Below are positions 3,478 to 42,578 of a DNA stretch of 63,328 nucleotides, piece by piece. The position numbers and the translations under genes are program-made. The first letter of the stretch is position 1; every line of letters starts with the position of its first letter. This DNA is from Candidatus Desantisbacteria bacterium CG1_02_38_46. Its GTDB lineage: Bacteria; Desantisbacteria; UBA1551; UBA1559. The notes beneath the pieces are model-generated. The model ran no database searches, had not been told where the DNA came from, and saw only the letters and a program-made list of their open reading frames with translations. Where the stretch lies: contig MNUO01000005.1 in NCBI GenBank assembly GCA_001871015.1, positions 1 through 63,328 of the forward strand, written 5' to 3'.

Positions 3478-4713
3478 ATGAAAGCAGCGCTTATAGTAAT
3501 TGGGAATGAGATTTTAATCGGAGATACTGTTGATACAAATGCTGCATATCTCGGAAAGAAGTTAAGTCATATCGGAGTAGAGGTTGTATTTAAATCGACT
3601 GTTCCTGATAAAGTTGAAGATATAAAGGAATCGTTTAAAACAGCATTGAACCGGGCAAAGATTGTAATAATAGTTGGAGGGTTAGGTCCTACAAGGGATG
3701 ATGTAACCAGGGAAGCAGTTTCGGATTTATTGAAAAAGAAACTCAAGTTTCACCGTAGATTGTTCAGGAATATTGAATCTTTTTTTCAAAAAAGAGGAGT
3801 TGAAATTCCATCAATCAGTATTAAACAGGCATTTTTACCTGCAGGAGCAAAAGAATTAAAAAATACTGTTGGAACAGCACCTGGTTTTTTGCTCAAATAC
3901 AGAAACAAATTGATTATTGTATTGCCAGGTCCTCCAAGAGAAATGAAACCAATGTTTGAAAAAATAATCCCCACATTAGAAGAAAAATTAAGAAATTCAC
4001 CTATTGTTATTCGCAAGATTTTAAGGACTTATGGAATTGGCGAGTCATCTATAGAAGAAGGGTTAAACGATATAAAAAATACGAGGGAATTTGAAATTGG
4101 ATTTCAGGCACACCCTGGGTATGTTGATATAAAATTGTGTGCAAGAGCAAGAAATAAAAATTTAGCAAATAAAATTATAAGTAAATTTGAGTCCAAAATT
4201 TTTAAAAGATTTAAAAATTATATTTTTAGTAGAAAAGATGAAAATCTTGAGGAAATTGTTGGAAATTATTTGAGGAAAAAAGGACAAACATTGTCAATTG
4301 CTGAATCCTGCAGCGGAGGATTAATTTCAAATTTGATTACAAATATACCGGGAGCATCCGATTATTTTAAATGTAGCGTGATAAGTTATAGTAATGAAAT
4401 GAAGAGGAAAATTCTCAATGTGCCTGCAAAATTTTTGAAGAAATATGGAGCGGTAAGCAGTTCTGTAGCTGGGAGGATGGCTGAAGAAATAAGAACTTTG
4501 ACAAATACGGACATAGGACTTGGTATAACCGGTATTGCAGGCCCTTCAGGAGGGACAAAGAATAAACCTGTAGGTTTGGTTTACATCGCACTATCAACGC
4601 ATAAGGGAACAACTGTTGAAAAATTCAATTTTTATGGTGAAAGGACACAGATAAAGGAAAAAGTCGCTCTCACCGCCTTCTCCTTATTATTAAAATATTT
4701 TTTGAGTAGGTAG
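3478..4713 (+). CDS. cinA: CinA-family protein (MoCF-like domain plus nicotinamide-nucleotide amidase domain)
   Basis: N-terminus KAALIVIGNEILIGDTVDTNAAYL and GGLGPTRDDVT. C-terminal ESCSGGL ... GITGIAGPSGGT motifs. Confidence 0.9.
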   Translation: MKAALIVIGNEILIGDTVDTNAAYLGKKLSHIGVEVVFKSTVPDKVEDIKESFKTALNRAKIVIIVGGLGPTRDDVTREAVSDLLKKKLKFHRRLFRNIESFFQKRGVEIPSISIKQAFLPAGAKELKNTVGTAPGFLLKYRNKLIIVLPGPPREMKPMFEKIIPTLEEKLRNSPIVIRKILRTYGIGESSIEEGLNDIKNTREFEIGFQAHPGYVDIKLCARARNKNLANKIISKFESKIFKRFKNYIFSRKDENLEEIVGNYLRKKGQTLSIAESCSGGLISNLITNIPGASDYFKCSVISYSNEMKRKILNVPAKFLKKYGAVSSSVAGRMAEEIRTLTNTDIGLGITGIAGPSGGTKNKPVGLVYIALSTHKGTTVEKFNFYGERTQIKEKVALTAFSLLLKYFLSR

Positions 4714-23384: not shown

Positions 23385-23411
23385 ACGAGATTACTGGAGA
23401 GTGAAAATCAT

Positions 23412-33237: not shown

Positions 33238-33315
33238 ATGTAACTCAGGACTTTAGTCCTGACATGTAACTCAGGACTTTAGTCCTGACATGTAACTCAG
33301 GACTTTAGTCCTGAC
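33238..33315. repeat. Three exact tandem family-A units (26 nt each)
   Basis: ATGTAACTCAGGACTTTAGTCCTGAC x3 starts directly after the stop codon. A further ACACAC/GTGTGT hairpin lies at 33326-33344. Confidence 0.95.
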
Positions 33316-35404: not shown

Positions 35405-35992
35405 GTGGTTAAGGTCGGTTTTATTGGATGTGGGGGAATGGCTGGAGTGCATCTGGATAAACTGAAACAGATAGAAGATGTGCAGATAGTGGGTTTATGT
35501 GATATAATAGAAGAAAAGGCAAGGGTGTACAATCAGAAATATGGTGGCAATGTATATACTGACCACAGGGTGATGCTTGATAGGGAAAAAAGTGTTCATT
35601 CTCTCGGATACAGGGGTTTGCTGACAGATATACCGGAAAATGATGTTGACGATGCTTCATCGGCTAACCTTAAGTTTAAAAGCGGAGCCGTTGGCAATTT
35701 TTCAACCACATGTATTCTAAATCCAGGAGTAGGTATGGGACTTGAAATTGCTCTTAAACACATGATGATAAAGGCAGATTCTTCTGGTTACAGTATTATC
35801 AGCGAGCAGCCCCAGGAGGTTAAGGCTACAAATGACTACCTGCTGGATATAGAAAAGTCATTCATAGAGGCAATAAAAACAGGTGACCGTTCTAAGATAA
35901 AATGTAATTATGAGGACGGAATGAAAACTCTTGAAGTAACTCTCGCAGTAAATGAATCAATAAAGACAGGGAAGACCATTCATTTAAAGTAA
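35405..35992 (+). pseudogene. Gfo/Idh/MocA-family oxidoreductase remnant (internally deleted)
   Basis: Only 195 aa. The Rossmann start VKVGFIGCGGMAG...YTDHRVMLDREK jumps straight to C-terminal-domain-like sequence, and no EKP motif is present. The intact family member at 44187-45359 is 390 aa. The stop codon lies inside a repeat unit. Confidence 0.55.
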
Positions 35993-36108
35993 CTCAAACC
36001 TTTAGGTTTGATATCAGGACTAAAGTCCTGAGTTACGTAACTCAGACCTTTAGGTTTGATATCAGGACTAAAGTCCTGAGTTACGTAACTCAGACCTTCA
36101 GGTCTGAT
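35989..36108. repeat. Five abutting 24-nt family-A units in alternating orientation
   Basis: Units at 35989, 36013, 36037, 36061 and 36085: forward, reverse, forward, reverse, forward. Followed by TTTTT. Confidence 0.95.
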
Positions 36109-36175
36109 TTTTCTTGAAGTTATAAGTATAATATTAAAATCTTGGACTTCGTCCAAGAACCTTAAGGAGACGCAG

Positions 36176-36910
36176 ATGGAGCCGAAGCATAAGTCATCGT
36201 CAAGACCTACTCGGCAGCTACAGAACTTCAAAAATATTCCAGTTAAAGACTGGCCTGTTGATGATCGCCCCCGAGAGAAATTGTTGAAATGGGGTGAACA
36301 CACACTTTCTGATGCCGAATTGATAGCGATTCTTATCCGCACCGGTACAAGGGGAATAAGTGCCATTGACCTTGGAAGAAGAATTCTGCAGAAGTTTAAG
36401 ACTTTTCGTCAGATGAGTCATACAGATATTTCTCAGTGGCGGGAAATTGTGGGATTGGGTAATACCAAAATTTGTCAGATAAAAGCAGCAATAGAAATTG
36501 GCAGGAGATTTATTACAGAGGAAAGAAAAAAAGAAGGACCGGTAAAGTCTTCCAGGGAAGTAGCAGATTTAATGATGCCAAGATTAAGGGATTTAAAAAA
36601 GGAAGTATTTAAAATTTTACTCCTTGATGGGCAGAACAATGTGAATAATGTGGTTGAGATGGATGAGGGGACGGTTACTCAGGCTACACCATCAATCCGG
36701 GAGATAATTTCAAGAGCATTGCAAGATTTTGCTGCTGCAATTGTTGCTGTGCACAATCATCCTTCGGGTGATCCGCATCCCAGTGAAGGAGATAAAGAAT
36801 TTACCAGAGAGCTCGTTAGTGCTGGCGAGATTATGCAAATAAAAGTTCTTGACCATATTATAATAGGTGACAACAAGTATTTCAGCTTTGCAGACGAAGG
36901 TCTTTTGTAA
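36176..36910 (+). CDS. radC: RadC-family JAB/MPN-domain protein
   Basis: SDAELIAILIRTG helix-hairpin-helix-like N-terminus and HNHPSGDPHPSEGD JAMM-like motif. Confidence 0.88.
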   Translation: MEPKHKSSSRPTRQLQNFKNIPVKDWPVDDRPREKLLKWGEHTLSDAELIAILIRTGTRGISAIDLGRRILQKFKTFRQMSHTDISQWREIVGLGNTKICQIKAAIEIGRRFITEERKKEGPVKSSREVADLMMPRLRDLKKEVFKILLLDGQNNVNNVVEMDEGTVTQATPSIREIISRALQDFAAAIVAVHNHPSGDPHPSEGDKEFTRELVSAGEIMQIKVLDHIIIGDNKYFSFADEGLL

Positions 36911-36914
36911 AGAT

Positions 36915-36983
36915 GGTGTCAGGTCTTGACAAATGACAAATATCAGGACTAAAGTCCTGAGTTACATGTCAAGACCTGACACC
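36915..36983 (+). mobile_element. 69-nt MITE-like element: 17-bp terminal inverted repeats (family B) enclosing one family-A hairpin
   Basis: GGTGTCAGGTCTTGACA...TGTCAAGACCTGACACC. By manual comparison it is the exact reverse complement of 43217-43285. Confidence 0.8.
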
Positions 36984-37165: not shown

Positions 37166-38390
37166 ATGGAAAACAATAAATTTTTCAGGAGGAACTTTAC
37201 TCTTAATATTCTTTGGGAGGCGACCTGGGGTCTGGGTTCAGGATTTGTTGTTCCTGCGACTATTCTTGTTATTTTCCTTACTCATTTTACTTCTTCAAAA
37301 ATGGTCATAGGATTACTTTTTACTATTCCTGTAATAAGTAGTGCAATTGCTCCCATTTTTTCTGCTTATTACTGGTCGCCTCACCCTTAAGAAAAAGATA
37401 TTACTATATTTGCATTTGGCCTATCTCGCTTGTTGGCTGGCGCTTGCAATATTTGCTTTCTTTTCTGCAAGGCTTAATCCGAGGTATGCACTTTTTATAT
37501 TTTTCTTTTTTTATGGATTGTCGAGTTTCATTATTGGAATAATTATTCCTCCATACTTTGATTATATTGGGAAAGTAATACCCAGGAATCGCGGAATTTA
37601 TTTTGGCATTGCTTTATCATCCAGCGCTGGATTGGCTATCATCGGTGCTTTGTTAGCGAGTCGAGCCCTCGATAATTTTTCATTTCCAGCCAGCTACGCA
37701 GTGTGCTTCTCAGCTTCTTTCTTAATACAATTTTTATCATTAATATTTTTTATTTTTAACGTTGAACATGATAATTCAGCGGGTTCATCGTTAACTGATG
37801 CGAGATTTAAATTTAGCAGTTATCTGCATACTCTTTTTAGGATTTTAAAAGAAGATAAAAGTTATTTTAATTTACTCCTTGTGCAAATAATTATTAGCTT
37901 TGGAGCAATGTCTTATTCTTTTTATACAGTATATGCAAACTCCATATTAAGTCTTAGTGGTAATCTTTTGGGGCGCCTGACAATCATGCTTGTCCTGGGA
38001 CAAGTTGTTGCCGGCATTATTCTTGGAGTTGTAGGTGATATTCAAGGACACCGCTTTTCTTTGGGTATTGCAATTCTGTGTGGGATTGGTTCAGCAATCA
38101 TAGCAATTTTTGGAAGATCAATTGGTTCCTTCCAGGCAATTTTCTTTCTTGCAGGTATTTCATTAACATCAAGCTATATTGAAATCACTAATTTAACATT
38201 AGAGGTGGCAACTATTGATGAGAGGTCTTCATATGCTGCATTGAATTCAACCCTTGTAGGACCTTTTGCTGCAATTGCTCCGTTGTTAGGAGGAATTCTT
38301 ATTTGCAATATTTCCTACACTTTCGTATTTGGACTTACTGCAGTCGTGCTGATTATAGGTTTCCTGATGGTGTTGTTTTTAAAGTGGTAA
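37166..38390 (+). pseudogene. MFS-type transporter interrupted by a frameshift at a T6 run
   Basis: ORFs 37166-37390 and 37341-38390 are both polytopic and contiguous. Shifting frame at TTTTTT (37356-37361) joins ...SSAIAPIF to LLITGRLTLKKK. Confidence 0.6.
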
Positions 38391-42382: not shown

Positions 42383-42578
42383 TGTAGTGGTCGAGTTTAC
42401 TCGACTTGTAGTGGTCGAGATTGTTCGACAATTGTAGTGGTCGAGTTTACTCGACTTGTAGTGGTCGAGTTTACTCGACTTGTAGTGGTCGAGCTTGTTC
42501 GACAATTGTAGTGGTCGAGTTTACTCGACTTGTAGTGGTCGAGTTTACTCGACTTGTAGTGGTCGAGTTTACTCGACT
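42383..42578 (+). repeat. Tandem array of 8 family-C hairpin units (24 or 26 nt) plus a partial ninth
   Basis: Units start at 42383, 42407, 42433, 42457, 42481, 42507, 42531 and 42555, all head-to-tail. There are no spacers. Confidence 0.95.

Follow-up and report, generated by a model that had tools for sequence, protein, structure and literature searches.

A five-unit hairpin array upstream of radC in Candidatus Desantisbacteria as a probable BIME-like cluster of a GTAAC-tagged, RAYT-associated REP family

The window analysed here is a contig of 63,328 nt (MNUO01000005.1, contig C131) from the fragmented MAG of Candidatus Desantisbacteria bacterium CG1_02_38_46, which comprises 1.73 Mb in 133 contigs, with 38% G+C and 87.8% completeness. 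Between the remnant of an oxidoreductase gene and radC it carries an array of short hairpins (Table 1), which occupies most of the 183-nt spacer between the two genes, and the question raised by this locus is whether the array is a device of the transcript, shaped in place, or a cluster of dispersed repeat DNA. The sequence-only reading had described five abutting units in strict alternation, and both the coordinates and the zero gaps are reproduced: five 24-nt units run forward, reverse, forward, reverse and forward, with inter-unit gaps of 0, 0, 0 and 0, reading GTAACTCAAACCTTTAGGTTTGAT / ATCAGGACTAAAGTCCTGAGTTAC / GTAACTCAGACCTTTAGGTTTGAT / ATCAGGACTAAAGTCCTGAGTTAC / GTAACTCAGACCTTCAGGTCTGAT, followed by TTTTCTTGAAG. 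In each unit, GTAAC is followed by a 7-bp stem with a TTYA loop and by one further base. The three forward stems are also as originally read, including the G·T pair of the middle stem and the TTCA loop of the last one; the difference in stem type between the reverse and the forward units had been underplayed.

Table 1. Coordinates of the array units and of neighbouring features in the window
Feature	Position	Strand	Description
Direct array	33240..33315		three GGA-type units, 26-nt period
Upstream gene, Gfo/Idh/MocA-like oxidoreductase remnant	35405..35992	+	195 aa
Minus-strand ORF	35980..36366	-	128 aa; spans the array and the start of radC
REP unit 1	35989..36012	+	class C, subtype AAC-T: GTAAC TCAAACC TTTA GGTTTGA T
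REP unit 2	36013..36036	-	class R, subtype GGA (TCAGGAC/GTCCTGA), which predominates in the genome
REP unit 3	36037..36060	+	one G·T pair in TCAGACC/GGTTTGA; a rare hybrid, found three times in the genome
REP unit 4	36061..36084	-	class R, subtype GGA, identical to unit 2
REP unit 5	36085..36108	+	class C, subtype GAC-C (TCAGACC TTCA GGTCTGA)
Tail TTTTTCTTGA	36108..36117	+	supplies the T-run and a TTGA -35-like box
Hairpin	36140..36158		single-copy, in no repeat family
Downstream gene radC	36176..36910	+	RadC-like JAB domain; co-directional with the upstream gene
Palindromic element	36915..36983		69 nt; has a GGA-type unit (36942..36965) inside, with longer inverted arms (GGTGTCAGGTCTTGACA...) on either side; combines two repeat families
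MFS transporter gene	37166..38390		split into 74 aa + 349 aa in the window and most sister contigs
GTAG-tagged REP family	42383..42578		second repeat family of the genome

The oxidoreductase ORF does end, as had been noted, at a TAA (35990-35992) inside the GTAAC head of unit 1. A weak Pfam match of its C-domain extends to profile position 217 of 218, so that the gene is short through internal loss and not through a 3' cut by the repeat. The internal arrangement of the array, as given by a repeat finder, is that of a 48-nt tandem duplication, in which units 1-2 (35989-36036) and units 3-4 (36037-84) are 98% identical, the three forward 24-mers are spaced 48 nt apart and the abutting inverted arms are 75-79% complementary. 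Unit 3 differs from unit 1 by a single A-to-G change, which followed the duplication of the 48-nt dimer and produced the G·T pair. Units 3-5 and the tail resemble a recurrent 72-nt composite of AAC-T(+), GGA(-) and GAC-C(+), followed by TTTTTCTTGA, which recurs at C61:18726 and in C76 around position 23400; the GAC-C subtype is the usual closing unit of arrays. The unit patterns match the window 8 and 16 times when 0.00 matches are expected in shuffles, and the 146-nt array stretch folds as RNA with -60.4 kcal/mol (z = -8.6), which together exclude a chance origin.

The array is one of many. The core pattern GTAACTCA-NNN-C-TTNA-G-NNN-TGA, in which the two NNN are free to mismatch, has 250 exact copies in the host genome and 325 copies at three mismatches or fewer; the shuffled genome gives 20 loose matches. 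After filtering, 314 units remain, in 127 clusters that include 44 singletons, 35 doublets (25 inverted versus 10 direct) and larger arrays, the longest with 10 units. At least 90% of the units have GTAA(C) as their tag, and GTAG is confined to minority variants. High-copy, dispersed and mainly extragenic, with a 7-bp stem and a 4-nt loop in a 24-nt unit, this family has the properties of REPs, and the two unit types that alternate in orientation, in arrays of up to 10 alternating units, are those of BIMEs; with its GTAA(C) tag it falls outside the GTAG-tagged REP super-family. A second REP family that has the classical GTAG tag (GTAGTGGTCGAG TTTA CTCGAC) and the same TTTA loop coexists in the genome, in 89 copies spread over 30 contigs. 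No relevant publication was found in a literature search with the sequence of the GTAAC unit. When the whole window is compared with Rfam at gathering thresholds there is no match, and for 35900-36250 at E <= 1 only generic miRNA-precursor models are returned, with 14-33 bits against cut-offs of 58-158.

A perfect stem of seven Watson-Crick pairs is found in 237 of the 250 exact copies even though the inner triplet is variable. Genome-wide, the triplets sort into discrete, compensated types: GGA/TCC with 158 copies, AAC/GTT with 43, GAC/GTC with 39, GGG/CCC with 37, and AAA/TTT and AGG/CCT with 6 copies each. About 156 copies of the GGA-T unit, at dispersed sites, are identical. The genomes analysed together have 19 types of complementary triplet, and full pairing is seen in 641 of their 746 units. 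Among the 67 distinct units, 92.3% of the cells are paired, compared with 75.9% in shuffles (0 of 500 shuffles reach 92.3%), double-sided changes number 86, compared with 33 in shuffles, and the covariation score is 0.466, compared with at most 0.184 for slid partners. The compensation that the sequence-only reading had proposed is therefore real for the family as a whole, but not as a stepwise series recorded by the three forward units at this site. The types AAC/GTT and GAC/GTC are old subfamilies; both are present in Candidatus Desantisbacteria CG1_02_49_89 (hereafter G001), the only relative of the same order, so that their split predates the array. One-step intermediates between them are rare (GAC/GTT, 3 copies; AAC/GTC, 2 copies). 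Unit 3 is such an intermediate between two established subfamilies, and the array holds no in-place stepwise record.

The unit types fall into two classes, class R with the GGA, GGG and AGG types and class C with the AAC, GAC and AAA types, and class is tied to orientation: of the 83 direct pairs of neighbours, 82 are of a single class, and 95 of the 104 inverted pairs combine the two classes. The same rule is seen around the RAYT genes of other phyla, with C-class units on one strand and R-class units on the opposite strand. The clusters lie mostly between co-directional genes (92 of 127; only 4 are convergent and only 5 divergent), with medians of 11 nt to the stop codon upstream and 29 nt to the start codon that follows, and the orientation with respect to transcription is roughly balanced for every unit type. 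In 8 clusters, the array at 35989-36108 included, the TAA of the head serves as a stop codon. Most clusters that appear to lie inside ORFs are over-extended ORF starts or weak matches. The 24-nt unit has one open frame per strand (VTQDFSPD / IRTKVLSY), which generates spurious ORFs and extends real ones. The N-terminus of the malic-enzyme ORF in G001 is an example of such an extension.

It could be argued that the array is another kind of repeat, such as a decayed CRISPR array, a coding repeat or a MITE bounded by terminal inverted repeats, given its regular 24-nt units, the open frame on each strand and the 128-aa ORF that runs across it. The alternating orientation and the 0-nt gaps, which leave no spacers, rule out a CRISPR array. 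Copies are scattered over the genome, most of them between genes, and apart from the hairpin itself they have neither terminal inverted repeats nor target duplications. The minus-strand ORF covers the start of radC, and the open frame that the units carry accounts for it. An origin of this kind is hardly credible.

A more substantial alternative is that the array acts mainly at the RNA level, as a terminator, attenuator or 3'-end stabiliser of an oxidoreductase-radC operon, and was shaped in place by compensatory mutation. The array is in the sense orientation between co-directional genes, its transcript fold is very stable, and E. coli REPs stabilise upstream mRNA. The fold comparison that had been called for favours a mixed fold (-57.8 kcal/mol), with long-range pairing of the heads around units 3-4; five local hairpins reach -45.7 kcal/mol. 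The last hairpin had been proposed as a terminator, and it is indeed followed by TTTTT, with 36090-36112 meeting a simple terminator pattern. This T-run is not special to the site, however, and has no sense bias: T-runs follow 9 of 92 arrays in sense and 9 of 92 in antisense, and the run belongs to a fixed 10-nt tail, TTTTTCTTGA, which is found on 20 of 36 GAC-C end units and on no other type, regardless of gene orientation; some copies point towards or overlap 3' ends of genes running the other way.

The stem mismatches also bear on this alternative. As DNA, the hairpin of unit 3, with its G·T pair, is clearly less stable than the others (-1.9 kcal/mol, compared with -4.9 and -5.5), but as RNA it is near neutral (-7.6 versus -7.5 kcal/mol), and genome-wide the mismatches comprise 12 G·T, 7 A·C and 9 others, with no wobble bias on the sense strand, which is a better fit to a constraint on DNA hairpins than on RNA. 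Since the stem types represent subfamilies found throughout the genome and also in G001, the radC gene of G001 has no upstream repeat and Rfam returns nothing above threshold, a primary role in RNA is improbable.

The tail has a further property. Its sequence, TTTTTCTTGA(C), resembles an UP element followed by a -35 box (TTGAC), and at C76:23445, C77:38454 and C117:5129 a perfect TATAAT lies 16-17 nt downstream of it, facing a gene start. When all copies are compared, a -10-like hexamer is present in 7 of 11 gene-facing and 4 of 11 gene-end-facing copies, which is not a significant difference, and the tail copy of the window has no -10 hexamer at proper spacing. It is possible that some copies provide a repeat-borne promoter.

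The comparison of the same site in related DNA, which had been proposed as a check, is possible at two distances. Ten contigs from JGI, ENA and NCBI assemblies of several samples represent the same population, being 99.6-100% identical to the window, and in all ten the array is identical base for base. In G001 the gene upstream of radC is a different one, and no repeat is found there. The array thus represents an insertion specific to this lineage, and one that is stable over the time-scale of the population. Other sites of the window do vary within the population. The direct array at 33240-33315 ranges from 2 units (contig L141) to 4 (contig L149), with 3 in the window and in most of the contigs. 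The MFS transporter is one gene of 408 aa in L141, which has 2 additional bases near window position 37521; the split seen in the window is a frameshift polymorphism within the population.

The evidence that connects the repeats to a transposase comes from relatives. Contig C23 of G001 encodes two Y1 transposases of 160 aa (1740-2222 and 3766-4248), each bracketed by repeats, and in two Deltaproteobacteria loci a Y1 transposase of 155-165 aa lies between repeat clusters. Repeats are present on both sides of the RAYT gene in four Deltaproteobacteria genomes and one Gammaproteobacteria genome (G041, G042, G045, G055 and G054), and on both sides of 22 of 80 RAYT homologues in metagenomes. The flanking follows the protein clade: it is found in 22 of the 27 metagenome homologues with at least 49% identity to the G001 protein and in only 1 of the 53 below 49%. 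The flanked RAYTs score 97.9-104.7 bits on NCBIfam NF047646 (REP-associated tyrosine transposase; cut-off 80), preserve the invariant HUH histidines H71 and H73 and the catalytic Y130 in a Y-x3-NPVR motif, and have E. coli TnpA-REP (PDB entry 4ER8) as their best match among solved structures. Taken together, these observations make the link between repeat and RAYT strong at the level of the family, and with the genome-wide alternation of the two classes they bear out the likeness to BIMEs that the sequence-only reading had noticed.

The surroundings of the gene are similar in several Deltaproteobacteria / Thermodesulfobacteriota loci, which carry a cysK-like (PALP) gene, a PCYCGC-domain gene and the RAYT (L234), a PCYCGC-domain gene, the RAYT and an HtrA-like protease (L059), a PALP gene and the RAYT (L077), or the RAYT and a protease (L235). 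These gene orders suggest that the RAYT occupies one conserved site and is vertically inherited within the Deltaproteobacteria lineage.

Neither tblastn nor a genome search finds a member of the cognate RAYT clade in the host assembly, and the Y1 genes that are found there are distant (26-28% identity) and have no GTAAC units at their sides. They are a RAYT-like Y1 pseudogene with an in-frame TAA (C60:8541-8924), a 327-aa protein with Y1 and DnaA_C helix-turn-helix domains (C109:6886-7869), which scores 79.9 bits on NF047646 against the cut-off of 80, and an IS200 TnpA fragment at the end of contig C53. Among the matches listed for the 80 metagenome RAYT loci, none shares DNA with the host genome, a search of 5.8 billion proteins returns nothing between 59% and 86% identity to the G001 RAYT, and the malic-enzyme locus of G001, which bears the RAYT, has no counterpart in the host assembly. 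Two candidate clusters for a RAYT of the host lineage turned out to be loci of the Deltaproteobacteria type.

It is therefore worth considering that the units are orphan satellites in this host, moved by no transposase at present, changing in number by slippage or recombination only and perhaps bound by a host DNA-binding protein, as E. coli BIMEs are binding sites for gyrase and IHF. The assembly without a cognate RAYT is in agreement with this, as is the variation between 2, 3 and 4 units of the 33240-33315 array in near-identical contigs, which is expected from slippage, and a Thermodesulfobacteriota MAG (MFD12058, G044) carries 77 copies and yields no flanked-RAYT match at E <= 1e-5. It is possible that the latter is a second orphan REP population. 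However, the roughly 156 identical, dispersed GGA-T copies in the host, together with the rarity of the GGA subtype in G001, argue that this subtype was amplified after the two lineages split, and they point to a lineage-specific dispersal in addition to local slippage. The absence of the RAYT is also not proven, because 12% of the genome is missing and the gene is expected between repeat arrays, where a gene of 0.5 kb is easily lost in assembly or binning. Orphan satellites are thus an unlikely, though by no means negligible, description of the host population.

The reading preferred here is that the array at 35989-36108 is a BIME-like REP cluster of a RAYT-associated family, with an unpaired GTAAC tag 5' of a 7-bp/4-nt hairpin, and this is very probably correct. 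By analogy with E. coli TnpA-REP, a small HUH/Y1 RAYT would act on the tag and the hairpin in single-stranded DNA and would nick and rejoin the DNA beside the hairpin, seeding copies in intergenic spacers; catalysis, the cleavage sites and any present mobility in the host genome are proposed on this analogy. After seeding, the clusters would grow locally, and at the present site a 48-nt forward/reverse dimer was duplicated beside the common three-unit composite AAC-T(+), GGA(-), GAC-C(+) with TTTTTCTTGA. The two stem classes are maintained in opposite orientation, so that neighbours fold as separate hairpins instead of a single perfect long palindrome. Any effect on the oxidoreductase-radC transcript, as a 3' hairpin barrier or through partial termination, would be a by-product. 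Against this RAYT model count the GTAA(C) tag in place of the classical GTAG, the lack of the cognate gene in the host assembly, and the identity of the array in all ten near-identical contigs.

The family extends well beyond Desantisbacteria. The motif occurs 118 times in G001 and is absent from 39 other genomes, with 0 matches for a backwards control. A scan of species-representative genomes finds it in many phyla, often as inverted pairs, with whole-genome copy numbers of 94, 77, 72, 37 and 28 in Thermodesulfobacteriota / Deltaproteobacteria MAGs, 49, 45 and 20 in Planctomycetota (including Anammoxibacter and Scalindua), 16 in a Gammaproteobacteria MAG, 10 in Zixibacteria, and 9 each in Nitrospinota and Magasanikbacteria. 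Single matches, for example in Acidobacteriota and Saprospiraceae, are at chance level, with about 140 chance matches estimated in 596 Gb. The repeat is thus carried by at least seven phyla (Desantisbacteria, Thermodesulfobacteriota, anammox Planctomycetota, Zixibacteria, Nitrospinota, Gammaproteobacteria and, within the CPR, Magasanikbacteria), most of whose bearers are anaerobic bacteria of groundwater and sediment.

The near-invariant 16-nt core (GTAACTCA...C TTYA G...TGA) and the two-class alternation in at least seven phyla raise the possibility of a single REP-RAYT lineage, in which the RAYT would diverge at about the pace of the housekeeping protein GatB. We put this forward tentatively, as a reading with a somewhat less than even chance. 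From G001, RAYT identities are 49-56% to Deltaproteobacteria, 40-45% to Planctomycetota and 43% to Gammaproteobacteria; from the host genome, the corresponding GatB identities are 58% (47% for the stop-interrupted copy of G042), 51-52% and 46%. With identities so similar for the two proteins, deep vertical descent and old horizontal transfer are not separable. For REPIN-RAYT systems, ages of about 100-150 million years are discussed. If the single lineage were real, REP and transposase would have been conserved together over far longer times, or the system, regarded as vertically inherited, would have spread horizontally; furthermore, the densest population found, at about one unit per 6 kb, would reside in a genome that may have lost its transposase. 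Vertical inheritance of RAYTs has been reported at short range, with the long range left open (Bertels, Gallie and Rainey 2017, bioRxiv 10.1101/119735).

On the preferred reading, the array at the oxidoreductase-radC locus is selfish or domesticated repeat DNA and no dedicated regulatory device, and it is of little import locally. For annotation, the units matter through the stop codons they supply, in the 8 cases described above, and through spurious ORFs, and MAGs of this sort are probably also broken at them during assembly. Research on REPs and REPINs gains from the family a clear example in which a REP core and its RAYT clade are conserved together in several phyla, candidate phyla included, and the clear covariation together with the strict rule of class and orientation makes the proposal testable with one small protein and 24-nt oligonucleotides.

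REP/BIME-RAYT systems are a known kind of element, and the GTAAC-tagged sequence type is not yet described. In E. coli BIMEs, Y and Z REPs alternate with orientation, as the C and R stem types do here. The family also shares with the E. coli REP/BIME and TnpA-REP system the short hairpins with a conserved unpaired 5' tag, the hundreds of intergenic copies and, in the relatives, a single small HUH/Y1 transposase gene bracketed by repeats. It differs in its tag (GTAAC, whereas that of E. coli is GTAG), in its 24-nt units that often abut without a linker, in a transposase of which only about 25% can be aligned to TnpA-REP (E = 2e-7), and in the gene being missing from the host assembly.

The GTAG- and CGTC-tagged REP super-families are likewise families of tagged stem-loops, some of them common to several species and phyla, with ties to RAYT genes ('REPtrons') (Di Nocera, De Gregorio, Rocco 2013, PMC3733652). 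The present family resembles them in the tagged stem-loops, in the sharing across species and phyla and in the link to RAYTs. The string GTAA is absent from that paper, so that none of the families it describes has a GTAAC tag; it is older than the candidate-phylum genomes (Desantisbacteria, Zixibacteria and Magasanikbacteria) in which the GTAAC repeat occurs.

The comparison extends to the REPIN-RAYT systems described from Pseudomonas and Enterobacteria (Bertels and Rainey; Bertels, Gallie and Rainey 2017, bioRxiv 10.1101/119735), with which the family has in common that inverted doublets are the commonest multi-unit form, that abundant identical 'master' sequences are accompanied by rare one-step variants and, within Deltaproteobacteria, that the RAYT appears at a conserved locus. 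Unlike in REPINs, the doublet arms here differ in stem class and are only 75-79% complementary. The described REPIN sequences are lineage-specific, whereas the 16-nt REP core of the present family is kept across at least seven phyla.
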